A stretch of DNA of 25,451 nt from Pseudomonadota bacterium (GCA_043821645.1 JBDRCO010000015.1:1-25451), one strand, 5' to 3'; positions 465 through 23,706 are shown, counted from the first letter of the stretch. Numbers and translations: made by a program. Notes: generated from the sequence alone by a model not told the origin.

Positions 465-496
465 ATGGTACGTGATTTTCATGACAGCGGAGGCCT
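465..496 (-). promoter_or_regulatory. Candidate transposase promoter, AGGC-N7-GTCAT-N10-TACCAT
   Basis: Minus strand reads aggc ctccgct gtcat gaaaatcacg taccat, with a good -10 hexamer about 60 nt upstream of the tnp ATG. Same spacing as the other motif copies; left half-site is weak. Confidence 0.5.
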
Positions 497-523
497 GTTC
501 AGCGGTTGCGGGCAGGCACTCAC

Positions 524-572
524 TGGCGCAGGTTGCGACAGCGGCGAGCGCTCGTTGATGCAGGTTGCGCCA
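524..572. repeat. Imperfect hairpin, candidate terIS end of the IS91-like element
   Basis: TGGCGCA (524-530) and TGCGCCA (566-572) enclose an inner stem cggcgag/ctcgttg. It lies between tnp and the truncated neighbouring gene. Confidence 0.4.
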
Positions 573-579
573 TCTTCGC

Positions 580-744
580 GTGCTCGGCCTCGGCATCCAG
601 GACGGCCAGGCCGCGGGCAGGGCCCACTTCGAGGCCATCACCACCGACGACGAGGCACGCAAGCGCGAGCTGCAGCAGCACCTCATCGACTACTGCACGC
701 GCGACACCAGGGCCATGGTGGAGGTCAGGAGGGCCTTGCTGTGA
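580..744 (+). pseudogene. 3' remnant of a DUF2779-like (RNase H-fold) gene
   Basis: Frame reads LGLGIQDGQAAGRAHFEAITTDDEARKRELQQHLIDYCTRDTRAMVEVRRALL*. The I.DG..A ... L..YC..DT.AM pattern is typical of DUF2779 C-termini. There is an in-frame stop at 556-558 and no upstream part. Confidence 0.7.
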
Positions 745-747
745 CGC

Positions 748-1086
748 TCATCCCGCCAGCTTCGCACTGACCAGACGATTCAGGCTCACCTTGGCCTCGC
801 TTGCTTCGAGCACGAGCTTGCGGTGAATCTCGGGCGGAACGCGCACGACGAAGCGCCCGCTGTAGTGCCGCGTCGCGATCGGATCCGGCACGGGCTCCTT
901 GCTGCGGATGAGGTCCGCGACGACATCCGAGGCGACTTTGCGAATCCCGCGCAGGGCAGCCTCGGGAGTCCTGGCAAGCCAGCTCAGGCTCGGAAACTCG
1001 GCACAGAGCCCGACGAACTCCCCGTCTTCCTCCGACCAGGTGACCCGGTAGCTGTAGCGGTCCGTGGACTTGCCAGCCATGTTCAA
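748..1086 (-). CDS. hicB: HicB-family antitoxin
   Basis: YRVTWSEEDGEFVGLCAEFPSLSW...YSGRFVVRVPPEIHRKL..EA...VSLN, i.e. partial RNase H fold plus RHH domain. ATGA-type overlap with hicA; start is 1086 or 1080. Confidence 0.93.
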   Translation of the reverse strand: MNMAGKSTDRYSYRVTWSEEDGEFVGLCAEFPSLSWLARTPEAALRGIRKVASDVVADLIRSKEPVPDPIATRHYSGRFVVRVPPEIHRKLVLEASEAKVSLNRLVSAKLAG

Positions 1087-1340
1087 CCCTCTCCCGGCTT
1101 CTCCTGCTTCAGCCTGTCAATGGCCTGCAGGACCTGCTTCACCTGGTACGCCTTCGCCCTTCCGCGCTCACCCTGGATGTTGACCCGAGGATCTCCAGCC
1201 CAGGGCGTGCGGTAGACCCGGTGGCTCGTGCCCTTCTGGCGCGGTTCACCGAAGAAAGCGTCGCAGACCTTGCACAGCTCCTTGAACCGCACCCCCTTGG
1301 GATTGGCCCGCATGGCTGCGACGAGATCGTCGACACTCAT
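1083..1340 (-). CDS. hicA: HicA-family toxin
   Basis: NPKGVRF.EL...FGEPRQKGTSHRVYRTPWAGDPRVNIQ...AKAYQVKQV, with the GxSH motif, directly upstream of hicB. Confidence 0.92.
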   Translation of the reverse strand: MSVDDLVAAMRANPKGVRFKELCKVCDAFFGEPRQKGTSHRVYRTPWAGDPRVNIQGERGRAKAYQVKQVLQAIDRLKQEKPGEG

Positions 1341-1346
1341 GTATCT

Positions 1347-1374
1347 ATGATATCAATAGTGACACTACAGTCAA
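1347..1374 (-). promoter_or_regulatory. hicAB sigma70-type promoter with overlapping palindromes
   Basis: Minus strand TTGACT-N16-TATCAT, followed by 6 nt and the ATG (leaderless geometry). Palindromes TAGTG-A-CACTA (1357-1367) and TGATATCA (1348-1355). Confidence 0.7.
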
Positions 1375-2930
1375 GGCCGCCTAGCTTTACGCGGCCACCT
1401 CACCCCAGCCCGCCTCCCCACCCCTCGTGCCGCCGGCACCTCCAGCATCACCACCATCTCCCCGCTCTTGCTGGATTCAAAGCACCCGTCCCCCTTTTCG
1501 AACTCGAAAGCCTGTCTTGGCTTCCCCCGTCGCCACCTTTCAAAACCCTTCCGCACCGCGCTGAAGTTCGAGACGACGGACGGCCCGAGCACCGTCAGTG
1601 GCGCCGAGTCCTTCAGCGCCACCTGAAGTGCAGCCATCACCTTCGTGAGGAAGTCGATGGGATGAAAGCCGGTCCTGTCCCCGACCTGGAAGCGGTCGAG
1701 CACCAGCACTCCTCGCTCCGAGTAATCCAGGGCGTAGATGTTGCCTATCCAGGCGTCCTTTCGAAGCACCCTGAGATTGAAGAACCTGCGGTGCGCAAGC
1801 TGCCTGCTGGCAAGCGCTGCTCCCGTCGTGCAGTCGCCCGAGTACTTGCCCTTGAACAGGTCGTGCAGGTCTTTGGTCGGATACAGGCACAGCTCGGCCC
1901 GGGCCGTCGAGAGCTCCGACGTCAGGCTTCTCCAGACCGCGGAGGGAAGCCTGGCCTGACCGAGGGCAGCGACGACGGACCTGGCGAAGGTTTTTTCAAA
2001 GAAGTCGTCGAGGGCATCGACCTTGTCGCAGAGATCTTCGAGCAGGGAGCAAAGCCTCCGGACCTCGGCGTCGTCCACCTTCTCCCTGAAGGCAGCGAGC
2101 AGGGAGTCGAGCCTGACCCTCGCCTGGGCCGCCGACCTCTGGGTGGCGATGAGGTCGACCAGGGAAGCCGCGTTGCGCCTGAAGTTCACGGGTCCACGCA
2201 GCCCCAGGATCTTGTTTCGCACCACGTCCATCAGCCGCACGAGCTGCGCGTCGAACAGCCTGGCCTTCAGGTGGCCAAGCCTTTCATCGACGACGATGTT
2301 GAGGTCCAGGATGAGCTGACCCGAGCCTTCCGCGACTTGCCGCAGGCGCGACAGCAGGGCCGTGTCGGGCGAGGTCCCGTCCGGCGCGAACAGCACGAGG
2401 GTGCACAGCGCCTTTTCAACGAAGGCACGGGCCTCCTCGTTCCTCGTCGCCAGGTGTCGACGGAGCAGCCGGGCCAGGAGCTGCTCCAGCTCACCGTGCG
2501 CCTCGAGCAGCATCTGCAAGTGGCCAGCGTGGCCCGTCTTCTCCGGAGCGTCCTCTTGCTCCGTGGTTTCTCCGAGCTGCCCCTCGAGCTGCAGCCCCTT
2601 GCCGAGCAGGGAAAGCGCCGTCTCCAGCTTGCTGTCACGAAGCTCGCCCTGTGCCTGCAGCAGCCTGTGCCGCAGCCTTTCGAGCGCCTCCAGGGTCTCT
2701 CCCTGGACCAGCACCTCGGCCAGCTCCGGGTACTGCTCCACGACGGGCCGCGGGACCTCCTCCAGCACCACGTCTATGCAGGCCGGCAGCCTGTCGAGCA
2801 GGGCAGGGCGCACGATCTGATGCCTGGCCACGAAGCGCTCCATGGCCTTGACCTCGGGCTCCGAGAACCAGCTCGGGAGCTGGCGAGCCTGCTGAACGCT
2901 CTCGATGATGTACGGGGGCAGCGAGATCAC
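1371..2930 (-). CDS. Hypothetical protein: helical/coiled-coil N-terminus, alpha/beta C-terminal domain with SGDCT motif
   Basis: 519-aa ORF with GC-rich codon usage and a GAGGAG RBS before the GTG start. Confidence 0.8.
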   Translation of the reverse strand: MISLPPYIIESVQQARQLPSWFSEPEVKAMERFVARHQIVRPALLDRLPACIDVVLEEVPRPVVEQYPELAEVLVQGETLEALERLRHRLLQAQGELRDSKLETALSLLGKGLQLEGQLGETTEQEDAPEKTGHAGHLQMLLEAHGELEQLLARLLRRHLATRNEEARAFVEKALCTLVLFAPDGTSPDTALLSRLRQVAEGSGQLILDLNIVVDERLGHLKARLFDAQLVRLMDVVRNKILGLRGPVNFRRNAASLVDLIATQRSAAQARVRLDSLLAAFREKVDDAEVRRLCSLLEDLCDKVDALDDFFEKTFARSVVAALGQARLPSAVWRSLTSELSTARAELCLYPTKDLHDLFKGKYSGDCTTGAALASRQLAHRRFFNLRVLRKDAWIGNIYALDYSERGVLVLDRFQVGDRTGFHPIDFLTKVMAALQVALKDSAPLTVLGPSVVSNFSAVRKGFERWRRGKPRQAFEFEKGDGCFESSKSGEMVVMLEVPAARGVGRRAGVRWPRKARRP

Positions 2931-2999
2931 GGGTTCTTCTCTCCTCGACCGTGCGGCACGAGGCCTCCAGGCCCCGGCCAGTCCACGACCACAGGACGC

Positions 3000-3031
3000 A
3001 GCATGCAGTGCACGTGTGACGTGTTCGGTCC
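3000..3031 (-). promoter_or_regulatory. Motif copy GGAC-N7-GTCAC-N10-CATGCT
   Basis: Minus strand ggac cgaacac gtcac acgtgcactg catgct, about 70 nt upstream of the 519-aa gene. Confidence 0.6.
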
Positions 3032-3157
3032 TGGCAGGTCAGGAAGGGGGCCACGCCAGCGGCAACGCCAGAGGCTCTGGTTCATTCAAGCGCAAAAATG
3101 CGGAGAGGAATCGTGTGGAGCCAACGGACTGGTTTGTCGTGTCGAGAAGGAATCAGC

Positions 3158-3853
3158 TCACGGCACGAAGCAGGCCCCCACATTTACGGCCATCTCGTAG
3201 CACGTCTGCGCTGGCGGGCAGGACCCAGGCACAGGAATGGCGTCTGCTCCCAAGGCATCGCGAACCGATGCATCGCCCGTGGGGTTGCAGGAGTAGCGGC
3301 AGGTGTTGCCTGCGTCACGCTGCGCGATGCGGGCACACACGAGGTTCTCCGAGCAGGGTGCTGGCGAGCAGCCCTCATCTGGAGCTGCTGCTGGCAGACA
3401 CACGCCAGCGTCGATGAACTGCGAGCCTCCGTCATCCAGCAATTGCCGGAGCTGGACACACAGCTCCCAACCCACGCATCGCGGTACCGGCTGCGATGGC
3501 TCACACGGCCGCCTGCACTCACAGCCACCGTCGGCAAGCGCCAGGGCGGTCAAGTCAGGATGGCATCCAGTGGGCGGGCAGGGTGCGCCGATCGCTCCGT
3601 CCGGGACAGGGCCGCCGTCCTGCAGGACGACTCCCGAGTCGTCATGGTGTCCGCCGTCTGGATCTCCGGCATTCCCGCACTGGCAATCGCCCCATTCGGT
3701 TCCGTCGTCATTGCAGACCTCGGAGCCGGTCACTCCGTCCGGGCAGGTGCAATCATCCCGCTCGCCGGGCTCACACACGGCTTGCGTGATGGAGCCGAGC
3801 GACGCGACGAGTCCGGCGACGAGCAAGCCGATGACCATGAGCGTGGAACGCAT
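3158..3853 (-). CDS. Cys-rich exported protein
   Basis: Start refined to ATG 3853 (GGAGG RBS). Hydrophobic signal MRSTLMVIGLLVAGLVA, then CEPGERDDCTCPDG...EVCNDDGTEWGDCQC and many further Cys. Confidence 0.78.
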   Translation of the reverse strand: MRSTLMVIGLLVAGLVASLGSITQAVCEPGERDDCTCPDGVTGSEVCNDDGTEWGDCQCGNAGDPDGGHHDDSGVVLQDGGPVPDGAIGAPCPPTGCHPDLTALALADGGCECRRPCEPSQPVPRCVGWELCVQLRQLLDDGGSQFIDAGVCLPAAAPDEGCSPAPCSENLVCARIAQRDAGNTCRYSCNPTGDASVRDALGADAIPVPGSCPPAQTCYEMAVNVGACFVP

Positions 3854-4017
3854 GACAACCTCCCCCTTGAAGCTGCCGAACGGCAGGGAAAGGCTAGCAC
3901 GGCCGTCTGTCACATCAAATACGCTCCGTACGACCGAAACTACTTCAGGTGTCGCATGGGTCCGGAACCCGTGCACCAGCGGGCGCTCTCGTTGAATCGC
4001 TCGCCGGCCTCACCACC

Positions 4018-5040
4018 TCACCCGTGCTCCCCTCGCTCCACCAGACCCCAGATCACACCCTCGCGTGCCGCCACCACCGGATCCGCCTGATCCTCGACAA
4101 GCGCCCGCGTCAGCCCCTCCCTGTGCAGGATTCCCAGGCACAGGGCGATGAGCGCATCCGAGCCATCGGGATCGTGCGTCTTGCCCCGGCCCGAGTCGTA
4201 GGTTTCGCAGAACTCCACGATGGCCGGAGCAACCTCGACGCGGACGCCCATGTGCGAGCAGAACTCGAGCATCAGCTTGATGGCCGTCTTCGGGTCTCGC
4301 TTGTACGAGGGGCAGCCGAGCGTGCGCATGGCCAAGCCCGGATACACCTCGACGGCGACCGGGCCTTTGCCAGGCCTGTCGAAGGGCAGCACCCTGTAGC
4401 CGGCCCGGCTGCGAAGCTCGTGCAGCAGCGCGTTCCCGAGCAGGGTCATGTTGAACAGCACCTGATACGAGTCCTTGAGAGGTGGTTGCGCGCCCGCGAG
4501 CACGTCCGTCTGCCGCTTGAGCCAGAAGTCCCTACCTCGCCAGCCCTTGAAGGCCGAGTAGTCGAGCCTTGGCTGCAGCGTCAGCATGCTCGCCACGAAC
4601 TCGTTGAGGGCCAGCCATGTTTCGAGCGCCCTCTCAAGTCCCACCAGTCTCGCGAACTCGAGGCTGGCGAGGAGTGACGACGGGATGGAGAAGGGAAAGT
4701 CGAAGGCCGCGACCGAGGGTCTGAGCTTCACCAGCACCTCGACCAGCTCGTGCGCGGTCCATCCAGGTGTACGCCCCTTCAGGACCCGTGCGTTGAACCC
4801 ATCCACCCCGATCTCGTAGGCGCTGTCAGCCCGACGTCTTGCCACCAGGGCAAGGATCTTCCGTCGCTGCTGCGACGGCAGGCAGGGACCGGCGAAGTCA
4901 CACCCCAGCACCAGCTCCAGGCTGCCTTCCTCTTCGAGTTCTTCCAGGGCCTGCCTCGCTCCTCTCAACGCTCCATCCTTCGACCCGACCGGCCGCTCAT
5001 GCCGTCCATGTTCCCGACGCTGTGTTTCCTGCTTGGCCAC
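4018..5040 (-). CDS. DUF429-like predicted RNase H-fold nuclease
   Basis: Motifs VLGCDFAG, AAFDFPF, VEVYP and DALIA; GGAGG upstream of the GTG start. Confidence 0.78.
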   Translation of the reverse strand: MAKQETQRREHGRHERPVGSKDGALRGARQALEELEEEGSLELVLGCDFAGPCLPSQQRRKILALVARRRADSAYEIGVDGFNARVLKGRTPGWTAHELVEVLVKLRPSVAAFDFPFSIPSSLLASLEFARLVGLERALETWLALNEFVASMLTLQPRLDYSAFKGWRGRDFWLKRQTDVLAGAQPPLKDSYQVLFNMTLLGNALLHELRSRAGYRVLPFDRPGKGPVAVEVYPGLAMRTLGCPSYKRDPKTAIKLMLEFCSHMGVRVEVAPAIVEFCETYDSGRGKTHDPDGSDALIALCLGILHREGLTRALVEDQADPVVAAREGVIWGLVERGEHG

Positions 5041-5130
5041 GTCGCCTCCACACCCCTCAAGCGCCCAGCCCAGGATCCGAGCCTCCAGGACCGGATCCCG
5101 GCCATCTACAAAGCCTGCCCTCGGCTGCCT

Positions 5131-6204
5131 TCAATTCACCTCCACCATCGAAAGCCACACCGCCTTGGCCAGGCTGACCTCCAGGCCAGGCCTGAGCAGC
5201 ACCTCCCGCACCGGCTGCCCGTCCACTTCTATCCCGTTGCTGCTCCCCGTGTCGACGAGCAGGGGGCCTTCGCCGAGGTCGATGAGCAGCGCGTGTACCC
5301 GTGACACCCGGTCGGCATCCTCGAACACCCTGTGCCCGTCACAGCGTTCGTAGCGCCCGATGAGCACGCCCTGCTTCAGCGCCGTGGCGCCCAGGCTGAG
5401 CCTCTGCATGGCCCTCTCGCTCGCCAGCTCCAGGATCCCCACCGCCGTCTCGCCTCGCTTGACCAGCGAGCCCGTGGTCGGGACCAGTCCCTTCAAGCTG
5501 GTCACGCTGGTCGAGTTCTCACGCGAGCAGGAGCCACTCAGGCACACCCCAGCGGCGAAGCGCACCGCCTGCTCGTCGAAGAACACGCGGGCAGGCAGGG
5601 TGTCGTAAGCGTCGTCAGCATCCTCGGGCCAGCTCGAGCCCTGCTCCGTGACCAGCAGGGCGAGGACCAGTGAGCCCACGCGCAGGAACACCGGGCCCTC
5701 GGCCCGCACCGCATGCATGAGGCGACCGCTCTCGTCCGAGAAGCCGAGCCCCGAGCGCAGGTCGAGCACGGTGATGCTCGCCTCGTCCTTGTTGACGCCA
5801 CGAGTCAGTACCGCGAGGTGCCTCAGCGACAGCTCGTCGAAGCTGCCAGGCAGGACCAGGTCGCAGCAGGAGTGGCGTCCGATGATGATGCTCCGGGGGT
5901 GCTTCCAGGACGATGCCACCCAGGCATGACCCACCAGCTCTCCGTCGGGGGCGAGGGCGAGGGCCAGCACGCCGGGCCTGTCGTGCATTCGCAGGGCTTG
6001 ACGGATCTGCTCCCAGGCCACCTTCCACATCGGCCTCGGATCGAAGGGCACGGGACCCTTGAAGGGTCTCGGGATCGTCGACACCCGCGTGCACTCGTCG
6101 CGCAGCGACAGTCCGACATCCCGGATGGCCACGCGGGACGCATCGAGCGACGGACAGCGCATCAGGCGGGCGATGGCACTCGGGCTGGAGATCTCATCGG
6201 CCAT
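5131..6204 (-). CDS. FHA-domain protein (two FHA-like domains)
   Basis: IIGRHSCCD...LSLRHL...DLRSGLG and LIGRYERCD...VSRVHA...DTGSSNG. Confidence 0.85.
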   Translation of the reverse strand: MADEISSPSAIARLMRCPSLDASRVAIRDVGLSLRDECTRVSTIPRPFKGPVPFDPRPMWKVAWEQIRQALRMHDRPGVLALALAPDGELVGHAWVASSWKHPRSIIIGRHSCCDLVLPGSFDELSLRHLAVLTRGVNKDEASITVLDLRSGLGFSDESGRLMHAVRAEGPVFLRVGSLVLALLVTEQGSSWPEDADDAYDTLPARVFFDEQAVRFAAGVCLSGSCSRENSTSVTSLKGLVPTTGSLVKRGETAVGILELASERAMQRLSLGATALKQGVLIGRYERCDGHRVFEDADRVSRVHALLIDLGEGPLLVDTGSSNGIEVDGQPVREVLLRPGLEVSLAKAVWLSMVEVN

Positions 6205-6242
6205 GCTTGCTCCTCGTGCTGCGGCTGATCGCAGCCCTCACC

Positions 6243-6274
6243 ATCATGACGCCCGACCCTGACAGCATCTGACA
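6243..6274 (-). promoter_or_regulatory. Motif copy TGTC-N7-GTCAG-N10-CATGAT
   Basis: Minus strand tgtc agatgct gtcag ggtcgggcgt catgat, about 40 nt upstream of the FHA gene. Confidence 0.6.
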
Positions 6275-6365
6275 CAGTCGCGACCTGGCCCGTTGATGTC
6301 GGCAGGGGTCAGCGGAGGAGCGAGTGGCTGGTCAGGACGCTTGGGTGCTTGTGTTTCATGCGGTG

Positions 6366-6383
6366 AAATGATATACATCATTT
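6366..6383. promoter_or_regulatory. AT-rich palindrome, probable operator
   Basis: AAATGAT-atac-ATCATTT immediately before the ATPase start. Confidence 0.5.
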
Positions 6384-6384
6384 A

Positions 6385-7620
6385 ATGAAAATGTATAAAG
6401 TCCGGTGGGTTGACGAACTCCTCACCTCGGCTCTGAGGGTCATGCCGGTGACCGTCGTGACGGGAGCCCGGCAAACCGGCAAGACCACGGCTGTACGCGA
6501 GCTGGGAGCAGGCAGACAGTTCTACAGCCTGGACGACATCAGCATCCTGGACCTGGCGCAGCGGGATGCGTCTCAGTTGCTGAAGAGTCGACCCGTGACG
6601 ATTGACGAGGCCCAGCGAGCTCCGGGCCTTTTCCTGGCGGTCAAGCAGGCTGTCGACGAGCGACGTCATCCCGGTGACTTCATCCTGACCGGGTCGGCCA
6701 ACCTGAACCTCGGTGACCTCGTGTCCGAGTCGCTGGCAGGCCGGGCCCTCTACCTCGAGCTTCCTCCCTTCTGCCCTGCGGAGTGGCGAGCGAGGGAGGG
6801 CAGGCTTGCGCCGCTCGATCAGCTCTTCGAGGAGAGCTTTGATCCTGGCGACTGGCCATGTGAGGAAGGCGCCTGGGCTGCCTGGTTGCTGCGCGGCGGC
6901 TTTGCTCCGTCGCTGGAGCTGGCTTCCGATCAGGACCGCGGGCTCTGGCTTGGCTCCTACGTGCAGACCTACCTCGAGCGCGACCTCAGGCAGCTCAGCG
7001 CCATCTCCAGCCTGCCGGACTTCCAGCGGCTCATGGTCCTCGCCGCGCATCGCTGCGCGAGGCTCCTGAACCAGGCAGACCTGGCGCGTGACGCAGCGCT
7101 ATCCCACGCCACTGCTCATCGCTACATCAACCTGCTCGAGGCAGGCTTCCTCATCACCAGGCTCCGACCCTACACCGCCGGTTCGGCGAGGTCCGTCGTC
7201 AGGACACCAAAGCTCCTGTGGAACGACTGTGGTCTCGCGGCGTGGCTCGCGGGGCTGCGCCGTCCCGACGACGTCATGAAGCGTCCGGACACCGGCTTCT
7301 GGCTGGAGCAGGCGATCTTCATGACACTTCAGACCTGGCGCGCGCTCGATCCTGTCGAGCGACGACTCTACTTCTGGCGCGACAAGTCTGGCCGCGAGGT
7401 GGACTTTGTCCTCGAGAAGCGTGGTCAGCTCGTGGCCATCGAGTTGAAGCTGGGTGGACAGGTGAGCGCGGGTGACGCTGATGGACTCAGGGCCTTTCGA
7501 GACTCGCTCAAGCCCGGGCAACACCTCGTCAGATCCGTTGTCATGCATGGCGGGACAGCACAGCCCCTCGGCTCGGACATCTTCGCCCTACCCTGGGGAT
7601 GGCTGGTCCCTGCTGACTGA
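6385..7620 (+). CDS. AAA_14 ATPase with DUF4143 / PD-(D/E)xK C-terminal domain
   Basis: GARQTGKTT, IDEAQ, LTGS, Y.ERD, PKL...D.GL, EVDF...AIELK. Start is 6385 or 6391. Confidence 0.92.
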   Translation: MKMYKVRWVDELLTSALRVMPVTVVTGARQTGKTTAVRELGAGRQFYSLDDISILDLAQRDASQLLKSRPVTIDEAQRAPGLFLAVKQAVDERRHPGDFILTGSANLNLGDLVSESLAGRALYLELPPFCPAEWRAREGRLAPLDQLFEESFDPGDWPCEEGAWAAWLLRGGFAPSLELASDQDRGLWLGSYVQTYLERDLRQLSAISSLPDFQRLMVLAAHRCARLLNQADLARDAALSHATAHRYINLLEAGFLITRLRPYTAGSARSVVRTPKLLWNDCGLAAWLAGLRRPDDVMKRPDTGFWLEQAIFMTLQTWRALDPVERRLYFWRDKSGREVDFVLEKRGQLVAIELKLGGQVSAGDADGLRAFRDSLKPGQHLVRSVVMHGGTAQPLGSDIFALPWGWLVPAD

Positions 7621-7800
7621 TCTCATGGGCAAAGATCACAACCTGCTACGACTGATCGCTGCCCTTTGAACGATGACGTGCGATCGTGACAGCCCCTGAT
7701 TCTCATACGCTCCACCGGGCCCCATCACGGCTCCCTGCAAGCGAGGCCTCTGCTTGTCCGCTCCTTCCAGGTAGACGGCCTTCACTGATTTGCATTCAGA

Positions 7801-7829
7801 TTGCACATTAATGTATATACGTGTAATAT
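7801..7829 (+). promoter_or_regulatory. Sigma70-type promoter, leaderless geometry
   Basis: TTGCAC-N17-TAATAT, then 6 nt to ATG 7836. AT-rich, imperfectly palindromic spacer. Confidence 0.7.
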
Positions 7830-7835
7830 GCCGTT

Positions 7836-15618: not shown

Positions 15619-15688
15619 AGGATGCCGACAATGTGGCCTTCAGTCAAGGACACATATAGCAACTTCAATGCGCTGATGAAGGACACAT
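15619..15688 (-). promoter_or_regulatory. Leaderless sigma70-type promoter with palindromic operator
   Basis: Minus strand TTGACT-N17-CATCCT-N6-ATG. Palindrome ATGTGGCCTT-cagtc-AAGGACACAT (15631-15655) and an extra AAGGACACAT half-site at 15679-15688. Confidence 0.75.
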
Positions 15689-15757
15689 TATCCTGCGCCA
15701 AGCTCAGGGACCTGCTCCCTCACCCGCCCGGCCACCATCCCCGTTGCCTCTGAACCA

Positions 15758-15789
15758 CGTCCCATCCTGTCACCCTCGTGCCGCATCCT
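15758..15789 (+). promoter_or_regulatory. Motif copy CGTC-N7-GTCAC-N10-CATCCT
   Basis: cgtc ccatcct gtcac cctcgtgccg catcct, about 85 nt upstream of ATG 15873. Confidence 0.6.
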
Positions 15790-15872
15790 GGAACAAGGGT
15801 CGCGCCCTGTCAGATCAAGCTTGGCCGCGCGTCCCTGACGTGCGGACAGGCACCACCAGCGAGGAGAGCAGC

Positions 15873-16178
15873 ATGGACACCGACGACACCCAGAAGATCG
15901 GCTACGCCCTCACTCTCATCTCTCTTGCGCTCTGCATGCAGGAGGACGGCGGCGAGAAGGACGAGCGCAAGGTGGACATCGATAACCTGAACAAGCTCGG
16001 ACAGTCGTTGCTCCACGACAGCGAGCCCCTGACCCCGAGACGAGCACTCGAGCTGGAGGAGCTGATCGACCACCACATCGCCATCGTCGACCCGGAGGGA
16101 ACGAGGGTGCCGCGCTTCCAGGGCAGCATCACCCATCCCGGTGCGTTCTATTTGAAGTTGCCGGAGGCGACGTCATGA
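15873..16178 (+). CDS. Small acidic hypothetical protein
   Basis: GAGGAG RBS then MDTDDTQKIG...; ATGA overlap with the next gene. Confidence 0.7.
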   Translation: MDTDDTQKIGYALTLISLALCMQEDGGEKDERKVDIDNLNKLGQSLLHDSEPLTPRRALELEELIDHHIAIVDPEGTRVPRFQGSITHPGAFYLKLPEATS

Positions 16179-16507
16179 GCCGGCCCATTCAAGGCCTGCC
16201 TCTGCTCGTGGCCCTCGTCCTGCTGCTCGCCCTCCCGGCGAGCACCAGCCCGACTCAGGTACCTCCACCTGCCGACGGGTTTGCCGCCTACGACAGCTAC
16301 GTGTTCAACATCGAGATCTGCCTGCGTGGCTGCCGGCAGGCCGAGACCGCCTGCAACAACAGGGATGGGGAGGACTGCAACGGTGCCTACGACCTGTGCT
16401 ACCGCCACTGCTACCTCATGGAGAAGCACAAGAACCGACGGCGTCTCGTCGAGCTGCTGTTGCCTTCCTGCAAGCTGCCCCGGCAGCAAGCGATCGCCCG
16501 GCTGTGA
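16175..16507 (+). CDS. Small exported Cys-rich protein
   Basis: Signal peptide and C-x3-C-x6-C-x6-C-x6-C-x3-C spacing. Confidence 0.7.
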   Translation: MSRPIQGLPLLVALVLLLALPASTSPTQVPPPADGFAAYDSYVFNIEICLRGCRQAETACNNRDGEDCNGAYDLCYRHCYLMEKHKNRRRLVELLLPSCKLPRQQAIARL

Positions 16508-16536
16508 CCCATCCTGACGAGCTTGCCTGCCATCAT
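16505..16536 (+). promoter_or_regulatory. Motif copy TGAC-N7-GACGA-N10-CATCAT
   Basis: tgac ccatcct gacga gcttgcctgc catcat, about 50 nt upstream of the mraZ-like ATG. The N7 spacer is identical to that of the 15758 copy. Confidence 0.5.
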
Positions 16537-16587
16537 CATTTCAGTCGGTCCGCCGGATGCGTCGCTCAACGGCAGGGGAGGTGGCAG

Positions 16588-17061
16588 ATGGTTGCACCGG
16601 GCACGTTTCGAGGCGTCCACGGCTCCTTTCAGGAGAACGGAACGATCCTCTTGCCTGACGACTTCATCACGGCCCTGAACGAGATGGGCGAGCTCGACCT
16701 CGCCATCACTCCAGGCTGCTACCACGCCTGCCTGTCCGTCTATTCCTTCAGCGACTGGCAGAAGATGGAGCACAGGGCCGCAAGCCTTCCGCAGTTCGAC
16801 CAGCACGTGCAGGACTTCCAGCTCACGTACATGGCACCCATGCAGCGCTGCACCGTCCTTCACGGCGGCCGCATCGTCGTACCGGAAGAACTTCGCGAGG
16901 TCATGACGGACGGCGAGGGCTCCATCGCCATCGTCGGTGCCGGAAAGTTCTTCGAGATCTGGAGTGGCGCCTCCTGGCGCAGGGCCTCATCCGAGGCCCG
17001 GGCAAGGCTCCTTGGCGAGCTGCCACCGTCTCTCAGGGCAATCGTTGACGAGCGGGTCTGA
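16588..17061 (+). CDS. mraZ: Divergent MraZ-family (AbrB-fold) protein
   Basis: FRG.H..., CLSVY...W, GRIVVP.ELRE, IVGAGKFFEIWS...W; GGAGG RBS before ATG 16588. Confidence 0.8.
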   Translation: MVAPGTFRGVHGSFQENGTILLPDDFITALNEMGELDLAITPGCYHACLSVYSFSDWQKMEHRAASLPQFDQHVQDFQLTYMAPMQRCTVLHGGRIVVPEELREVMTDGEGSIAIVGAGKFFEIWSGASWRRASSEARARLLGELPPSLRAIVDERV

Positions 17062-17164
17062 GGCCCAACCCATCCTCCACACCCCAGGACGTTCAGTCTC
17101 CTGTCCGGCCCTCCACCTCACCAGCACATTCTTCGGCCCTGGTTCAGGCTCTTTCGCCCTCCGC

Positions 17165-17812
17165 TCATTGCATCTCGACATCGCCAGCGACCTTGACGTG
17201 CTGCTTGAGTTTCTGGATTGCACTTGCCGGGAGCTGCGGATTGTCGCGAATGCGGAAATCGCCACCGACCTGGTTCAATGCCGACAGTCCGTCAATATTG
17301 CCGAGCACTGGATTGTCCGAGATGTGCAGGGAGCTGCCGATGTGCGTCAGCGCTTCCAGGCCGGCCAAGGTCTCGAGCGAGCCGTTTTCCTGCAGCCACA
17401 GTGCGCCACGAATGAAGATCGCCTCAGTGCTCGGATCGAACCTGGCCTCGCGTCCAACCTCCGTCAGGTGTTCGAGCCCCTTCAGGTCGTGCAAGGACCC
17501 GGTCGCCTGGACGACGAGGTACCTCTCGACCAGCTGCAGCTTGTCCAGTGCTGCAAGCGAGCTCACGGACGGGGGCTCGGAGCTGACGGTGTCGAGAACG
17601 ACGCCGTTGTTGAGGTCCAGTGAGACGTTGCCGATGAGCAGGTGACCCTTGACGCAGAGCATCCCTTCTAGCAGCGCCACATCCTCGTCGCTGTGGATGA
17701 GCGCATCACCCTGCCAGGCCTGGGCACCGTCGCACGGGTCGAAGCAACTGCAGGTCACACCCATGACGAGGACCAGTGCGGTTACCAGTGGCATCTTGTT
17801 TGCCATCTTCAA
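17165..17812 (-). CDS. Lipoprotein with receptor-L-domain-like repeats
   Basis: Hydrophobic signal ending TCSC; repeats such as LETLAGLEALTHIGSSLHISDNPVL and IDGLSALNQVGGDFRIRDNPQL. Start could be 17806. Confidence 0.8.
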   Translation of the reverse strand: MKMANKMPLVTALVLVMGVTCSCFDPCDGAQAWQGDALIHSDEDVALLEGMLCVKGHLLIGNVSLDLNNGVVLDTVSSEPPSVSSLAALDKLQLVERYLVVQATGSLHDLKGLEHLTEVGREARFDPSTEAIFIRGALWLQENGSLETLAGLEALTHIGSSLHISDNPVLGNIDGLSALNQVGGDFRIRDNPQLPASAIQKLKQHVKVAGDVEMQ

Positions 17813-18024
17813 TATCCCATGGCTGAGCTGACCGTCTCTGCGTCTTCGACGTCAGGCTCGCAGCTCGCAACTTGGTATTCTTCGGTCGAACGCGGCGGCG
17901 TGGCGGCCAGAAAGATCGGCGCCACACAATCCACGCAACCGACGCAGCAGCGTGGGGCGACGCAGGCGGTCCCACCGAAAGCGGCCGCGACGAGGAGGAG
18001 CACGAGCAGAAGTCGAAAACTCAT
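17809..18024 (-). CDS. Small Cys-rich exported peptide/lipoprotein
   Basis: MSFRLLLVLLLVAAAFGGTACVAPRCCVGCVDC; overlaps the start of the downstream gene. Confidence 0.5.
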   Translation of the reverse strand: MSFRLLLVLLLVAAAFGGTACVAPRCCVGCVDCVAPIFLAATPPRSTEEYQVASCEPDVEDAETVSSAMGY

Positions 18025-18295
18025 CGGGTTCCCCCGCAAGAAAAGTTCGATCTTCCACACGCACCGGCTGCGTCTTGCAGCATGTGGTGTTTTGGCGCGC
18101 CATCAATGGGTCGAGGCTCAATGTCCGTCAAGTGAGCACTTCACGTTACGTGCGCACGAGCGCCACGAATCGTGCCCCTGTGGCGCGGGGTGAAACCGAG
18201 CATGGGAGCCCCTCGGAAGCTGCAAGCCGCTGCTCCCGGCGCGGCCACCCTGTTTTCAATGGCCCTTCGCTGGAGGTCCCGGGTCTCCAACGTGA

Positions 18296-18351
18296 TATCC
18301 AATATTATCCTTTAAATTGACCAATCAGCCTAATGTGGATAAATATGGATA
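18296..18351 (+). promoter_or_regulatory. fic promoter/operator
   Basis: Inverted repeat TATCCAATATTATCC (18296-18310) / GGATAAATATGGATA (18337-18351) around TTGACC-N17-TAAATA. Confidence 0.6.
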
Positions 18352-18367
18352 AATTACTGGAGAACTG

Positions 18368-19414
18368 ATGGACCCATTCAAGAACCTCCAGATCACTCCT
18401 GCGCTGCTCAGGTCCATCGCGCGGATCGACGAGTTCAAGGGCCGCTGGTCAGCCCTGGGCAAGCTCGCACCCGAGAGGCTGAGCGCCCTGCGTCGCGTCG
18501 CCACCATCGAGTCCGTCGGCTCCTCCACCCGCATCGAGGGCGTCAAGCTGACGGACGACGAGATCGAGAAGCTGCTTGGTGGCGTCGAGATCCGATCGTT
18601 TCGCACGCGCGACGAGCAGGAAGTCGCAGGCTACTCGGACCTCATGAGCCTGATCTTCGACTCCCATGATGGGATGACGCTGACCGAGAACATGATCAAG
18701 CAGCTCCATGGCGTGCTGCTCAGGCACAGCCACAAGGACCAGCGCCACCGTGGTCACTACAAGACGTTGACGAACAGCGTCGAGGCCTTTGACTCGGACG
18801 GCAGGAGCCTGGGCGTCATCTTCGCCACGGCCAGTCCCTTCGATACACCACACCTCATTCGGGAGCTGGTCGAGTGGACCGCGGCCGCGCTCGACGAGAA
18901 CCGCCATCATCCACTGCTCGTGATCGCTGTGTTCGTGGTCCGCTTCCTCGCCATCCACCCTTTTCAGGACGGCAACGGCCGGCTCTCCCGTGCACTCACC
19001 ACCCTGCTCTTGCTCCGTGCCGGTTACGCTTACGTACCCTTCAGCTCACTCGAACGTGTCGTCGAGGACAGCAAGGACACGTACTGCCTGGCCCTGCGTC
19101 ATGCCCAGGCGACGCTCGACCGTGACGAGTCGCAGCTCGCGGAGTGGATCGCGTTTTTCATCGCCTGCCTGCAAAGGCAGGTCGAGGTGCTGTCGACGAA
19201 GCTTGAGCGCGAGAGGGTCATGGGAGCCCTGCCACCTCTGTCGGAGCAGCTCCTGGGCTACGTGCGAGAGCATGGTCGGCTGACGGTGCGAGACGCCGCG
19301 ACTCTGACCGGAGCCAGCCGCAACACGATCAAGTACCACCTGCAGCAGCTTGTTCGCTCCCAGGTTCTGGCTCGTCGTGGCCAGGGCCGGGGCACGTGGT
19401 ACGACAAGGCGTGA
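18368..19414 (+). CDS. Fic-family protein with C-terminal HTH
   Basis: HPFQDGNGRLSR catalytic motif; N-terminal SSTRIEG inhibitory-type motif; C-terminal wHTH ending GQGRGTWY. Confidence 0.95.
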   Translation: MDPFKNLQITPALLRSIARIDEFKGRWSALGKLAPERLSALRRVATIESVGSSTRIEGVKLTDDEIEKLLGGVEIRSFRTRDEQEVAGYSDLMSLIFDSHDGMTLTENMIKQLHGVLLRHSHKDQRHRGHYKTLTNSVEAFDSDGRSLGVIFATASPFDTPHLIRELVEWTAAALDENRHHPLLVIAVFVVRFLAIHPFQDGNGRLSRALTTLLLLRAGYAYVPFSSLERVVEDSKDTYCLALRHAQATLDRDESQLAEWIAFFIACLQRQVEVLSTKLERERVMGALPPLSEQLLGYVREHGRLTVRDAATLTGASRNTIKYHLQQLVRSQVLARRGQGRGTWYDKA

Positions 19415-19545
19415 CAGGTTCCGAGGCTACTCCACGGAGTCGGCGAACCTTCCACCAAGAGACCCAGGTCCTCTTCGGCGTCCGGCTCCAGGCCTTCTGC
19501 CCATGCACTTCGTGCCTGGCCTCCCCAACCCCTCAAAGCTGCCCC

Positions 19546-19666
19546 CCTGCCGTCCTGCCTACCTGATTGTCCCCTGCCGTCCTGCCTACCTGCCGTCCTG
19601 CCACCTGCCTACCTGATTCTCCCCCTGCCGTCCTGCCACCTGCCTACCTGCCTACCTGATCTGCCC
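19546..19666 (+). repeat. Tandem array of ~8-bp CCTGCCNN / CCTGATTN units (left copy)
   Basis: cctgccgt cctgccta cctgatt... repeated; same units as 24856-25275. Confidence 0.9.
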
Positions 19667-19676
19667 GGCCAAGCCC

Positions 19677-19907
19677 TCAGCTCCCCTCACCACTCCCGCG
19701 CAAGGTCACACCCACCGGCCTGTGCCCCGCGTGAAAGCTGAGCGACAGCGTCAGCACCCCCTGACTCTGGAGCTGTCTCAGGAACTCCCACGGGATGCAG
19801 ACGGGCAGGGGACGGGAGTCCGTGGTCCGGATGTGCAGCCCTTCGGGCAGGGGCTCCAGCTCGTAGCCCTCGTTGAGGAGGTACGTGTCTTCCCGCGATG
19901 CGCTCAT
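19677..19907 (-). CDS. Small hypothetical protein
   Basis: 76 aa; AGGAG RBS; ATGA overlap with the PcfJ-like gene stop. Confidence 0.6.
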   Translation of the reverse strand: MSASREDTYLLNEGYELEPLPEGLHIRTTDSRPLPVCIPWEFLRQLQSQGVLTLSLSFHAGHRPVGVTLRGSGEGS

Positions 19908-21499
19908 GGTGCTCCTGCCTTTCCTTCAACTGCCGTGTCGTCGCCCACAGGCCCAAAAGCGATGCACGCTCCGTTCCCGTTCACCCCGTCGAGCCAGCCG
20001 TCCAGCACTTTTCTGAACCCTGCAGGCAGCAGGGCATTGCGAGGACCGCTCACCTCGACGAAGGACCAGCCTTCATCGCCACGTGTCAGCAGGGCCGTTG
20101 CGTGGTGCTCCTGCCAGGTCGCGTGGATGACCACGTCACCCTCCAGGCCTCCATGAGACGCCACCATGGAGTGGACGCAGTGCTCCATGAGGTAGGACTC
20201 CTTGAGGAGCTGGTCCCAGGTCGTGAACTCCTCGATGACGAGGTCGGGTTGCGTGCAGGGCAGGGCAGGCAGCGCCCCTGCGCCGCAGGGCCCGGCAAGA
20301 AATTCCACGTAGTACTCCAGCAACACCTCTCTCTCCCAGCGGATCATTCTGGACACCAGCCTGTCAGGCGGGGTCGAGAGAACGGGCCAGCGCTTCGTGT
20401 TATCCAGGTAGTGCAGGAACCTCGTCAGCAACCAGCCAAGGCTCGTGCTGTCGTCATGTAGTTGCAGCTCCCCGTCCGCAAATCGCGTGTCCAGGGTGTC
20501 CGCACCGTCGAGATGGTGGTGCATCTTGTCCGCGATCGCCTGCAGCTCGACCAGGTGGCGCGATACGTGGCGAGCAAGCTGCCTTCTTGTCTCCTGCTGG
20601 AATGCTCTGCGCGGATTGCTGGCCAGCGCGAGCGCGGACATGGCCCTGTACCAGACCAGGTTCGTCCTGGGATCTGCCCTGGGGATGTCATCGACCAGGA
20701 AGCCGCGGGAGCTGGGCAGGATGCTTCCTGCTGGTACCAGGGGACCAGCCCTCATCACCAGCAGCCTGCAGGTGCTCCTGTCCCTGTCCTCGCTTTCCGC
20801 GGGCAGAGCGCAGGAGTGCAGATAGACCTCGAGCACCTCGTCGACGAGCTTCCTGAGCACCATCCCATCGACCGCGGCCTTCACCAGCCTGCCTGTGTCC
20901 GGGATCCGTGCCTGTTCGAGCTTGGCCAGCAGGGTCAGCACGCCAGGGCAGGTGTCGACGAGCTGGGCCAGGCGCCCTGTCGGATCCGTGACCAGCAGCC
21001 TGTAGATGTTCCACCGAGCAGCCCTGTGGAACTGGCTTGCGGGCTGCCACGCCTCCCGGTCGACCTGGTGCGCCAGGTGTTGCCTGGCCCTATCGAGGGC
21101 AGGGCGGATCGCCGGGATGGTGAGGAAGGCGCTGGTCCTGCGGGCGAGGCAGGTCGCGAGCAGTGCCACGGCCACGGCGCCTGGACCAGTGTCGGTGCCG
21201 AGCCGCGTCGGCTCTCCGGGGCGAGTGCCGCGGGCTGCATCGCCACCAAGCTCGATCAGGAAGTCCCTGCCCACCCGCAGGTGAGCTTCGAGCCTCACTC
21301 TCCCGCCCTCGAGATAGCTCAGGTAGACGCCCCGGGGCAGCAGGCTCAGGTACAGCTCGTCCCGCCCCGTGAGGCTGGCGAGCCTCGTGAGCCGCCCTGC
21401 ACCGGGTGCGAAATCGGACAGCCCGAGGGTCCTCCCTCCAGGCGTCCAGCCAGGCATGACCTCGGCCAGCAGGCCCTGCGCGGCCAGAAACACGCTCAC
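19904..21499 (-). CDS. PcfJ-domain-containing protein
   Basis: C-terminal LLKESYLMEHCVHSM...ATALL...WSFVEVSGPRN...W matches the PcfJ-like E(G)xxMxHCV...aT...Q..G..N pattern. Start refined to GTG 21499, overlapping the ATPase stop. Confidence 0.8.
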   Translation of the reverse strand: MSVFLAAQGLLAEVMPGWTPGGRTLGLSDFAPGAGRLTRLASLTGRDELYLSLLPRGVYLSYLEGGRVRLEAHLRVGRDFLIELGGDAARGTRPGEPTRLGTDTGPGAVAVALLATCLARRTSAFLTIPAIRPALDRARQHLAHQVDREAWQPASQFHRAARWNIYRLLVTDPTGRLAQLVDTCPGVLTLLAKLEQARIPDTGRLVKAAVDGMVLRKLVDEVLEVYLHSCALPAESEDRDRSTCRLLVMRAGPLVPAGSILPSSRGFLVDDIPRADPRTNLVWYRAMSALALASNPRRAFQQETRRQLARHVSRHLVELQAIADKMHHHLDGADTLDTRFADGELQLHDDSTSLGWLLTRFLHYLDNTKRWPVLSTPPDRLVSRMIRWEREVLLEYYVEFLAGPCGAGALPALPCTQPDLVIEEFTTWDQLLKESYLMEHCVHSMVASHGGLEGDVVIHATWQEHHATALLTRGDEGWSFVEVSGPRNALLPAGFRKVLDGWLDGVNGNGACIAFGPVGDDTAVEGKAGAP

Positions 21500-23646
21500 G
21501 CGCCGAACCCGATGGACCGGATCGGTCCCTTCTTGAAGGAACACTCGTCCGTCAGCCGGCGGGCGATCTCGACGCAGGTGGGCGTCTCGCCCAGGGCGTC
21601 GAGGCGCCTTTTCACGGCGGCGTAGTCTCCGGGAGCGAGCTGGTGCAGGACGCGCACGGATGTGAGCGCCTGCTCCACGTCATCAGCGTCGTGCCTGTCG
21701 CCGACGAAGTATTTTTTGAACAGCGAGCAGGCCTGCTCGGGCCTGAGCCAGTGGAACTCGGCCTTGAACACGAAGCGCCTCAGGGCGGCCTGGTCGATGT
21801 CCTTCCACAGGTTGGTGGTGCACACCGCGATGCCGCGAAAGACCTCGAGCTGCTGCAGGAACTCGTTGACCTGAGAAACCTCCCAGGAGCGGAAGGCCAG
21901 GTTCCTGTCGCGCAGCATGCTGTCGACCTCGTCGAACAGCAGCATCGCCTCGGTATCCGAGGCCTCCTCGAAGGCCCGGGTGATGTTCTTCTCGGACTCC
22001 CCGACCCACATGCTCAGGATGTCGGAGCCGCGCTTGCACACGACCTTGCGCTTCATCCGCCAGGCCAGGTACCTCGCGTACTCGCTCTTGCCCGTTCCAG
22101 GTGCCCCGTACAGGCACAGGGTCACGCCGCGGGGTCCCTCCGGCTTCCACCCTTCAAGGCGGTTCGCCAGACCCTCCAGGTCGTCGCTGCTGTTGAGCGC
22201 GGTGACGTCGAACATCCCGGGGTCGAAGGCCTGCACCAGCGCCGGGTCTTTCCCCGTCATGAGCTTGATCGTGGGCGTCAGCACCTTCTCGATGCTCTCG
22301 ACGCTGGGCTTGCGGTCCGCGGCCATGATGGTCGCGCAGCGAACGGCCGTGGCGAGCTGGGCCGGGCTCACCTCGTGGAGCTCGGCCAGCCTGTCCACGT
22401 CGGCGGACGAGATGCTCGAGCCCTCGCCGAGGTGCCTTCGCAATGCCCGGGCTCGCTGCGCGGCGTTCAGGGGCTTGAACTCGATGACCAGGCTGAAGCG
22501 CCTCAGGTAGGCGACGTCGAAGCGGTCGGTCTCGTTGCTGATCCAGATGGTGGGGAGGGGGTTGTTCTCGAGCTGGTGGTTGAACCACTGCTTCGACATG
22601 TGGCCGGAGGCTCGACCGCCCAGGAAGCCGAGCGGCCCGTCCCTCGAGAACAGGTCCTCCATCTCGTCGAACAGGATGAGGCCGCGGTCCTGGGCCAGCA
22701 GGCTCTGGCTGAGCAGCAGCGAGCGCAGGCGCTCGTTCGGGAGCGGCGACTCGCCCTGCTCGTCGACCCGGCCGGCCTGGTACAGCTCGACACCGAGCAG
22801 CTTGGCCAGGAGCCTCGCCAGCTCTGTCTTGCCTGTGCCCGTGGGTCCGTGCAGGAGGATGTTGATGCCCTTCTCGCGCAGCTTGAGTGCCCCGCCAAGG
22901 AGGGCCAGGACCGAGTCGACGCTGCCTGCCTGGTGCTGGAAATCCGCTCGCTCGAGCGTGGTGTCCGGGGCCCTGTCGAGGAATCGCGCGAGCAGCGAGA
23001 CCCTGTCGAGCCCGGGGGAGGAGAGCGCTTCCAGCAGCGAGGCCTTCAGCTCGATCTTGGAACTCAGGAAGATGTTGTTCTGCTCGACGCTGACGAGCCC
23101 CGAGCTCATCAGCGTTCCAGCCGGGCTCAGGGCCTTGCGCACCAGCTCATGGCTGGCGGCGATGCAGATCCCGATGACCTTCGCGCATCCGCCGAGGCTG
23201 AGGTCGCCCGCGTGGTCGATCAGTTCCTTGAGCTGGGAGTGGCTGTGCACAGCCGCCAGGAAGGTCAGAGCCTGCTTCTCCAGGGGATCGAGGTCCAGCA
23301 CCTGTGCGAGGGCGGCGAGGCAGCCTGCGAAGGGCTCGGCGGGCTCGGGCGGCACCACGGGTGCCTTGCCATGCCTGCGCTGGACCTTCTTGAGGGCGCG
23401 GCTCAGCTCGGCCCGCGTGAGATCGTCGTGAACCAGGCCGTTCTCGATGTCGACCTCGGCAACCGCGTGCACGATGTCGCAATCCTCTATCTGCCGCAGC
23501 GCCTTGCCGGTGAGCTGGCGGAAGGGACCATGCGCGATGAAGTTCAGCGCGTGTATCCTGACGCACTCGTCGAGGGCAGGGTCGATCTGCCCCCCGATTC
23601 CGTGCATGAGATGACCCAGGTGTCTCTTGTATGGGTAGTGTGGCAT
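21496..23646 (-). CDS. AAA+ ATPase with two AAA modules
   Basis: GPTGTGKT / ILFDEMED / YLRRF and GAPGTGKS / LLFDEVDS / TTN / ALRRF. AAGGAG RBS before ATG 23646. Confidence 0.92.
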   Translation of the reverse strand: MPHYPYKRHLGHLMHGIGGQIDPALDECVRIHALNFIAHGPFRQLTGKALRQIEDCDIVHAVAEVDIENGLVHDDLTRAELSRALKKVQRRHGKAPVVPPEPAEPFAGCLAALAQVLDLDPLEKQALTFLAAVHSHSQLKELIDHAGDLSLGGCAKVIGICIAASHELVRKALSPAGTLMSSGLVSVEQNNIFLSSKIELKASLLEALSSPGLDRVSLLARFLDRAPDTTLERADFQHQAGSVDSVLALLGGALKLREKGINILLHGPTGTGKTELARLLAKLLGVELYQAGRVDEQGESPLPNERLRSLLLSQSLLAQDRGLILFDEMEDLFSRDGPLGFLGGRASGHMSKQWFNHQLENNPLPTIWISNETDRFDVAYLRRFSLVIEFKPLNAAQRARALRRHLGEGSSISSADVDRLAELHEVSPAQLATAVRCATIMAADRKPSVESIEKVLTPTIKLMTGKDPALVQAFDPGMFDVTALNSSDDLEGLANRLEGWKPEGPRGVTLCLYGAPGTGKSEYARYLAWRMKRKVVCKRGSDILSMWVGESEKNITRAFEEASDTEAMLLFDEVDSMLRDRNLAFRSWEVSQVNEFLQQLEVFRGIAVCTTNLWKDIDQAALRRFVFKAEFHWLRPEQACSLFKKYFVGDRHDADDVEQALTSVRVLHQLAPGDYAAVKRRLDALGETPTCVEIARRLTDECSFKKGPIRSIGFGA

Positions 23647-23674
23647 GGCGATCTCCTTCGATTGACCTCCACCC

Positions 23675-23706
23675 AGCCTCTCCCCATACTGTGACATCCG
23701 GAGTCA
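23675..23706 (-). promoter_or_regulatory. Palindromic TGAC-N7-GTCAC-N10-GAGGCT, candidate WYL-protein site and ATPase promoter
   Basis: Plus strand tGTGAC-atccgga-GTCATa lies between the divergent ATPase and WYL genes; the -10-like hexamer is about 30 nt upstream of the ATPase ATG. Confidence 0.7.

Follow-up and report, generated by a model that had tools for sequence, protein, structure and literature searches.

Regulators with a WYL domain are emerging as a common switch for DNA-damage responses and phage defence. Apart from those of Caulobacter, mycobacteria and a handful of enterobacterial defence systems, few have an operator and a promoter layout that are defined. Here, one such regulator, with the domain order winged helix-turn-helix (wHTH), WYL and WCX, is analysed together with its operator and its likely target on a contig of 25,451 bp (C15; GC content 0.63), the whole of which is called the window below. 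The contig belongs to a 7.07-Mb metagenome-assembled genome with 67% GC. At its right end, the regulator gene is divergent from a gene encoding a dual-AAA ATPase. The region between these two genes probably holds the one genuine WYL-controlled promoter of the window, working in the manner of DriD or SiwR, in place of the regulon of six dispersed promoters, switched on by single-stranded DNA (ssDNA), that had been proposed for this contig (the original prediction).

Among the described WYL activators, PafBC of mycobacteria has a regulon of around 150 genes and replaces -35 recognition, and the distance between its -26 element and the -10 hexamer matches the N10 spacing discussed below. In a published report, PafBC is described as a heterodimer that recognises a short non-palindromic element, and does so only jointly with RNA polymerase (PMC13004042). 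The homodimeric DriD binds the pseudo-palindrome ATACGAC-N7-GTCGTAT, which covers the -35 position at a fixed distance from the -10 hexamer, and at its own bidirectional promoter it switches on a single side, the operon divergent from driD (PMC13004042). In the account of the DriD structures 8TP8 and 8TPK, Arg37 and Arg41 read the guanines of the GAC/GTC core, Glu40 reads outer base 1, and ten residues are listed as contacting ssDNA (PMC10853764). The DriD site of didA has one degenerate half (PMC9186387).

SiwR of Mycobacterium smegmatis is reported as a homodimeric WYL activator of its adjacent dinB-like operon only, with a 19-bp imperfect palindrome as its operator, placed between -35 and -10 in an intergenic stretch of about 60 bp (PMC10693628). 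CapW and BrxR are repressors of CBASS, BREX and other defence systems that bind palindromes of about 20 bp in the promoters of the adjacent systems and carry an RWHVR motif in place of WYL (PMC11662680).

An operator conserved beside the WYL gene

The WYL operator TGTGACATCCGGAGTCATAC occupies positions 23690–23709 of the + strand and scores 19.1 bits with a position weight matrix (PWM) of 16 orthologous operators. It contains the imperfect palindrome GTGAC-N7-GTCAT (GTGACATCCGGAGTCAT, 23691–23707), and the palindrome described earlier beside the WYL gene is real, though imperfect. Among 559 relatives, 79 loci were examined, comprising the Myxococcota loci L001–L028 and 51 loci from other phyla. 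Upstream DNA is available for 27 of the Myxococcota loci, and 16 of these have sites of the GTGAC-N7-GTCAC type 25–250 bp before the WYL gene, in a single constant orientation. The 16 orthologous copies give the Myxococcota consensus cTGTGACA-nnTGr-GGTCACAg, an imperfect palindrome of 20 bp.

The matrix is specific to this position. When each locus is left out in turn, the operator scores range from 11.3 to 30.5 bits and reach at least 17.5 bits in 19 of 21 cases, while the 51 loci from other phyla (around 600 kb) contain no match of at least 18 bits. In the Myxococcota loci, the matches fall almost exclusively upstream of the WYL gene. Across the 7.07-Mb genome, two matches reach at least 18 bits; the window copy ranks second among all matches and first among those between genes. 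In five related genomes, the perfect 12-base operator pattern occurs one or two times per genome, compared with none for the reversed control, and all of these copies except one are inside the WYL locus.

Some relatives carry two to four operators within 10 kb, at 150–169 and 3462–3481 in L001, at 1671, 1738, 3986 and 4401 in L006, and at 5756 and 5814 in L013. Each of these operators has a hexamer at the same offset. The genes that they face are small unknown ones and one with a PcfJ domain, the latter lying leftward of the second operator in L001. Small local regulons therefore exist within the WYL family.

The promoter geometry toward the AAA gene follows a fixed spacing. A TANNNT hexamer starts exactly 10 nucleotides past the proximal GTCAC (offset 29), on the AAA-facing side, in 11 of 21 orthologous sites, and the looser NANNNT in 14 of 21. 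At the other 49 tabulated offsets TANNNT occurs only twice, and at the mirror offset on the WYL side it does not occur. The N10 spacing that had been read from the window thus holds in the family, on the AAA side only. In the window, the hexamer at this place is GAGGCT (23675–23680, - strand), 10 nucleotides past the proximal half-site GTCAC when reading toward the AAA gene, and it is the putative -10; an alternative hexamer, TATGGG, is found at 23682–23687.

Relative to the putative -10 hexamer, the operator covers about -41 to -22. The columns at the -35 position read CC[CT]CA, which are conserved operator bases and unlike TTGACA, and the column counts of the orthologous sites contain no -35 hexamer 16–18 nucleotides from the conserved hexamer, the place being occupied by the operator. 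An extended model of operator plus hexamer was trained on the 21 orthologous sites with the window excluded, the training sites scoring 18.7–38.7 bits. This model ranks the AAA promoter of the window first in the 7.07-Mb genome, at 20.6 bits.

The regulator and its likely target

The WYL gene (23710–24819, + strand) matches the Pfam WCX, WYL and HTH families and has two candidate starts, the ATG at 23710, which is the first in frame and directly follows the operator, and that at 23785, which corresponds to the database call of 344 residues. On the 369-residue reading, the Pfam domains are HTH_23/HTH_11/HTH_PafC at 43–98, WYL at 187–256 and WCX at 289–357. The WYL family PF13280 has only two matches in the genome, this one and another within a 1057-residue frame on contig C33. 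Around 90 homologues of the protein at 38–56% identity were found, nearly all of them in uncultured Myxococcota.

DriD is the closest solved relative. The family profile matches 8tp8/8tpk with an E-value of 2.4e-26 over profile positions 9–324, and the single sequence of the window protein matches DriD at 5.5e-8. Seven PDB sequences were matched at E-values of 0.001 or lower, all of them DriD or PafBC, with E-values of 5.7e-13 and 7.4e-8 for PafBC. In the phmmer alignment, the base-reading Arg37 and Arg41 of DriD are kept in the window protein, whereas Glu40 is replaced by Arg, the family consensus being RTIRRD. This combination is consistent with operators that have the GAC/GTC core in common but not the outer bases.

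The residues by which DriD contacts ssDNA are far less conserved. Among the ten (Y168, S172, R178, R189, Y192, R204, W206, R207, Y240 and R288), only Y168 and Y192 are identical, and the counterparts of R204, W206 and R207 are T, L and N in an alignment of low identity. The sensing of ssDNA that had been attributed to the WYL factor is weakened by this comparison, not refuted, because the residues are aligned at low identity and the evidence is correspondingly weak.

In 8 of 16 orthologous loci (L003, L005, L008, L011, L014, L015, L021 and L022), the first codon of the WYL frame is an ATG or GTG located within the operator spacer. In these loci the right half-site encodes residues 2–4 (G/R, S, H/Q), giving N-termini that begin with MGS or MRS. 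A start codon inside the operator means that the bound protein must sit on its own start, and suggests a leaderless or tightly self-limited expression of the WYL gene.

The dual-AAA ATPase gene (21496–23646, - strand), which has a Pfam AAA match and two P-loop modules, is likely to be the gene under the control of the regulator. Its start was taken as the ATG at 23646 (MPHYPYK...), which is preceded by GAAGGAG, and the N-terminal MPH is shared with L015. The C-terminal module resembles AAA proteins of the IetA/CDC48 type, below the family cut-offs. In at least 10 of the 28 Myxococcota loci, an AAA-protein match immediately precedes the WYL gene in divergent orientation, and in two more, L025 and L027, the match lies downstream of the WYL gene on the same strand.

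The gene that overlaps the end of the AAA gene encodes 546 residues (19904–21544, - strand) and is probably in the same operon. It has no Pfam, NCBIfam or PADLOC match and is PcfJ-like by language-model features only, with an ESM Atlas features score of 0.96 and PcfJ clusters as all 30 matches. No conserved partner was found downstream of the AAA gene, the downstream genes differing in all seven related loci examined, and the conserved target is likely to be the dual-AAA ATPase itself. More generally, the neighbours of the WYL family are variable and mobile- or defence-like, including a NERD helicase, UvrD/PD-(D/E)XK, DUF2779 and PcfJ.

The other five sites and the rival readings

The original prediction listed six strings with the layout half-site-N7-half-site-N10-hexamer, and all six are present at the positions, on the strands and with the spacing it gave. 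That layout is conserved at the WYL/AAA divergent region, but the other five sites score 11.4, 7.8 and, in three cases, below 6 bits with the extended model. The best explanation for them is that a loose pattern was matched by chance.

The strongest of them precedes a gene for a 519-residue protein and reads CCAGGACC-GAACAC-GTCACA-N9-CATGCT (3000–3034, - strand). It scores 11.4 bits (genome rank 31), is in the sense orientation 70 nucleotides before a GTG start and keeps all six invariant operator positions. It is the sole other candidate worth a bench test, and may be a weak second site. The protein itself (gene 1371–2930) has no family match and one homologue (P0097, 52% identity) among 5.8 billion clustered proteins, and in 400 other sampled genomes of the phylum no homologue was found beyond two fragments with E-values of about 1e-3.

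The site before the MraZ-like gene (16502–16536, + strand) combines a perfect distal half, CTGTGACC, with a poor proximal one, TGACGAG, and the hexamer CATCAT. At 7.8 bits (genome rank 151), it is within the chance range. The sites before the small gene that starts near 15873 (15758–15789, + strand) and before the IS91 transposase (465–496, - strand) both score below 0 with the operator PWM and below 6 bits with the extended model, and both were judged chance. In the paralogous copy of the insertion sequence (IS), on contig C18, the region of the IS91 site is the most diverged stretch and the hexamer is lost. A spacer common to the 15758 and MraZ sites, CCCATCCTG, was also considered as a shared element and set aside; its two copies are unremarkable because it occurs 211 times in the genome, with about 0.76 expected per window.

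The site before the FHA gene (6243–6274, - strand) was judged to be chance or part of a duplicated segment. Its operator PWM score is -1.1 in the orientation needed for an FHA promoter and 8.7 in the opposite one, and with the extended model it reaches 7.0 bits (rank 195) in the opposite orientation only, remaining below 6 in the orientation proposed. The upstream regions of two tandem DUF4143/PDC-S01 paralogues, at 6205–6400 and 7621–7851, are duplicated with 73% column identity, and both keep ATGACG...TGACAGC on the + strand. The FHA-site segment recurs at 7670–7690, upstream of the second DUF4143 gene, where there is no leftward gene.

Over the window, the motif is no more frequent than chance would allow. 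The core GTCA-N11-NANNNT occurs 10 times, compared with 7.28 ± 2.37 in shuffled sequences (16 of 100 shuffles reach 10), and 19 matches to GTGAC-N7-GTCAC are found when up to two mismatches are allowed, compared with 15.0 ± 3.9 (19 of 100 reach 19). As a control for the extended model, the operator was taken out of the window and the remainder was subjected to 300 block-wise dinucleotide shuffles. There is one real match of at least 10 bits (shuffle mean 0.62; 138 of 300 shuffles reach the real count), one of at least 8 bits (mean 1.39; 224 of 300) and five of at least 7 bits (mean 1.96; 17 of 300).

Five of the ten core matches fit the tighter pattern GTCA-N11-CATNNT, with 0.44 expected, but this pattern was chosen after viewing the data. 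Equally extreme patterns of the same architecture arise on average about 3.4 times per dinucleotide-shuffled window, with at least one in 28 of 30 shuffles, and this look-elsewhere control explains the excess. Of the five matches, those at 6243 and 7670 belong to one duplicated segment, and that at 5910 lies inside the FHA gene.

The sense-oriented placement before genes, noted for the six copies, has no genome-wide counterpart, the core being found 36 times in sense and 51 times in antisense in 3151 upstream regions derived from rough gene calls. No N7-spaced site could be located for the degenerate seventh copy said to precede ardC. A repeat search found no dispersed family of promoter-sized repeats, and a scan of positions 1–20000 for consensus sigma-70 promoters gave four sites, compared with 3.0 ± 1.7 in shuffles, none of them at the proposed sites.

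Most likely, the regulator acts like DriD or SiwR, because the operator lies at about -41 to -22 and no -35 element accompanies it. We infer activation rather than repression from the missing -35, the one-sided -10 at a fixed distance and the kinship to activators; like activation, the -10 assignment and the effector are deductions from the sequence. In the proposed mechanism, a homodimer-type WYL regulator (23710/23785–24819) would bind the palindrome at 23690–23709 that it shares with the divergent dual-AAA operon and, bound at the -35 position, would help RNA polymerase to initiate from a promoter too weak on its own. Activation would occur in one direction only, away from the gene of the regulator, whose own expression would probably be damped, or at least not raised, by occupancy of the operator.

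Several observations weigh against this account of a single, activated promoter. A search for RNA runs that contain positions 15000–24800 listed none. GAGGCT, at the conserved offset, is a weak and poor -10, and 10 of the 21 orthologous sites have no TANNNT there. The window operator deviates from the family at two positions that are otherwise near-invariant. The sites behind the first PWM had been collected with the pattern that this PWM goes on to score, although the leave-one-out and off-target controls hold, and the locus counts overstate independence because the loci are related. At the 519-residue gene, the operator-only PWM gives 7.5, not far below the weakest true sites (11–12 when left out), and the chance of such an upstream sense match in this contig is around 0.05–0.06 at the genome-wide rate, a figure that is suggestive and not significant after six tries. 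Finally, an excess appears at the lowest threshold only, where nine matches reach at least 6 bits with the extended model, compared with 2.78 ± 1.7 in the shuffles, only 1 of 300 of which reaches that count; the nine include one site counted on both strands and one in a tandem repeat.

An operator placed over a promoter is equally usable by a repressor, and the main rival is that the WYL protein is a repressor of the CapW/BrxR type, which would block the AAA promoter and its own gene in a defence or mobile module until released by a ligand. The defence-type genes of the contig (three PDC-S01/DUF4143 ATPases, SoFic and the IetA-resembling AAA module), the similar character of the neighbours in relatives and the operators that cover the regulator's own start codon in half of the 16 orthologous loci would all suit such a role, as would the palindromes of similar size that CapW and BrxR are reported to bind in the promoters of adjacent systems (PMC11662680). 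This reading is nevertheless unlikely, since neither CapW nor BrxR is among the PDB sequences matched, ALYLL stands in the protein at the place of their RWHVR, and the conserved hexamer lies on one side only, at a fixed distance, with the operator where a -35 hexamer would be. Quite improbable, in turn, is a bolder version of activation, in which the regulator would found a Myxococcota branch of DriD-like proteins that has left the DNA-damage role. Such a regulator would respond to an effector other than ssDNA (because eight of the ten contact residues are changed), would switch on the dual-AAA module of mobile or defence islands, would gate its own, possibly leaderless start inside the operator and would drive one or two weak promoters with one good half-site, those of the 519-residue and MraZ-like genes.

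The remaining alternative, that the WYL factor activates at least six promoters of the island, with one good half-site plus contacts of RNA polymerase being enough, appears very unlikely. It draws on real features of the family, in that the proposed layout is the true layout of the family promoter, CATCCT occurs at true operator-linked promoters of two relatives (L016 and L001b) and other relatives have several operators close together. The degenerate half of the didA site of DriD (PMC9186387) is in line with sites of one good half, the 519-residue site keeps the six invariant positions in the correct placement, and the CATNNT count and the weak excess at 6 bits point the same way. Against it, the five sites fall far below every orthologous site, no excess over shuffles remains at 8 or 10 bits, the look-elsewhere control covers the CATNNT count, the FHA site fits only the wrong orientation and within a duplication, the IS91 site is lost in the second IS copy, sense bias is absent genome-wide and related genomes hold only one or two perfect operators each. 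Gapped motifs of about eight fixed bases picked by eye are expected by chance in any 25-kb window; hence, the regulon part should not be carried forward as it stands. What stands of the proposed DriD/PafBC-like activator is its full-length homology to DriD and an operator of DriD geometry at one promoter; the several dispersed target promoters are not supported. The analysis yields a testable operator consensus, cTGTGACA-N5-GGTCACAg with TANNNT after a further 9 nucleotides, for a family found in many uncultured Myxococcota, together with a conserved target, the dual-AAA ATPase, and a hint of an effector pocket unlike that of DriD.

The surrounding island and the comparison with known systems

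In its gene content, the contig resembles a mobile or defence island. Besides the genes already described, it carries an IS91 transposase fragment (that of the 465–496 site), three DUF4143/PDC-S01 ATPases (two of them in tandem), a SoFic-type Fic protein gene, an open reading frame (ORF) with a weak ArdC-N match, the MraZ-like and FHA protein genes and several orphan genes. Footprinting of the whole island was unproductive; the family holds a single other genome, and the parts of the window with matches elsewhere are limited to short repeats and IS fragments.

Upstream of the third DUF4143 gene (15610–15690), TTGACT-N17-CATCCT is followed 6 nucleotides later by an ATG, resembling a leaderless sigma-70 promoter. 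The earlier reading of CATCCT at 15619–15624 as the -10 of an ordinary-looking promoter agrees with this arrangement. Two direct AAGGACACAT repeats are located nearby, at 15646 and 15679. The region 9000–13000 has a low GC content (0.49–0.54) and two overlapping orphan genes (771 and 258 residues) with no family match, and is probably a separate insertion. Positions 12741–13096, which cover the upstream region and the beginning of the weak ArdC-N ORF, recur in the genome on at least 10 contigs with 74–92% identity, and are probably the end of a repeated mobile element. Directly after the WYL gene, at 24800–25280, there is an array that repeats about every 50 bp and whose unit is CCTGCCTACCTGATTCCCTCCTGC plus a CCTGCC-rich filler. 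A two-unit copy follows the Fic gene at 19539–19658 and related copies are found on contig C127; the array does not look like CRISPR.

The literature searches made on the WYL domain with Myxococcota, or on WYL with PcfJ, turned up no description of this operator or of the WYL–AAA pair. Those on WYL with PcfJ returned only unrelated Caenorhabditis elegans plasmid names. In the part of one report drawn on, two M. xanthus WYL regulators appear only in a proteome table (PMC12288472).

In comparison with the described systems, the locus is closest to DriD of Caulobacter crescentus (8TP8/8TPK, 9PFQ/9PFV/9PGA), with which the protein shares the wHTH-WYL-WCX order and homology over its full length. 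Both operators consist of two 7-bp arms 7 bp apart around a GAC...GTC core, here TGTGAC-N7-GTCACA, and both cover the -35 position with a constant spacing to the -10, which is putative here and has no -35 hexamer. As reported for driD, a single site in a bidirectional region faces the operon divergent from the regulator gene. However, the two operators differ in their outer bases, and an AT-rich spacer is lacking here. The multi-gene damage regulon of DriD is not evident either, with one or two perfect sites per genome, the target is a dual-AAA ATPase, and the start codon of the regulator often lies inside the operator in relatives.

The comparison with PafBC is more distant. Both would belong to the WYL activator class, and the two proteins are weak sequence relatives (the E-values of 5.7e-13 and 7.4e-8 given above), but here there is one WYL gene at the locus, with two WYL matches in the genome, and the operator is palindromic with two arms.

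CapW and BrxR resemble the locus in being wHTH-WYL-WCX homodimers beside variable defence cargo, with a palindrome of about 20 bp in the shared promoter region (PMC11662680). They differ from it in their RWHVR motif, which is absent from the window protein (HDEALYLLCH at that strand), and in having no match to this protein at E-values of 0.001 or lower among PDB sequences. Furthermore, the promoter of the window, without a -35, looks activator-dependent.

SiwR, likened here by its published description, matches the locus in scale, in layout and in the small number of sites, although it belongs to another phylum and controls other target genes, and the DriD equivalents of its WYL arginines R204 and R207, which serve as functional markers, are not kept here.

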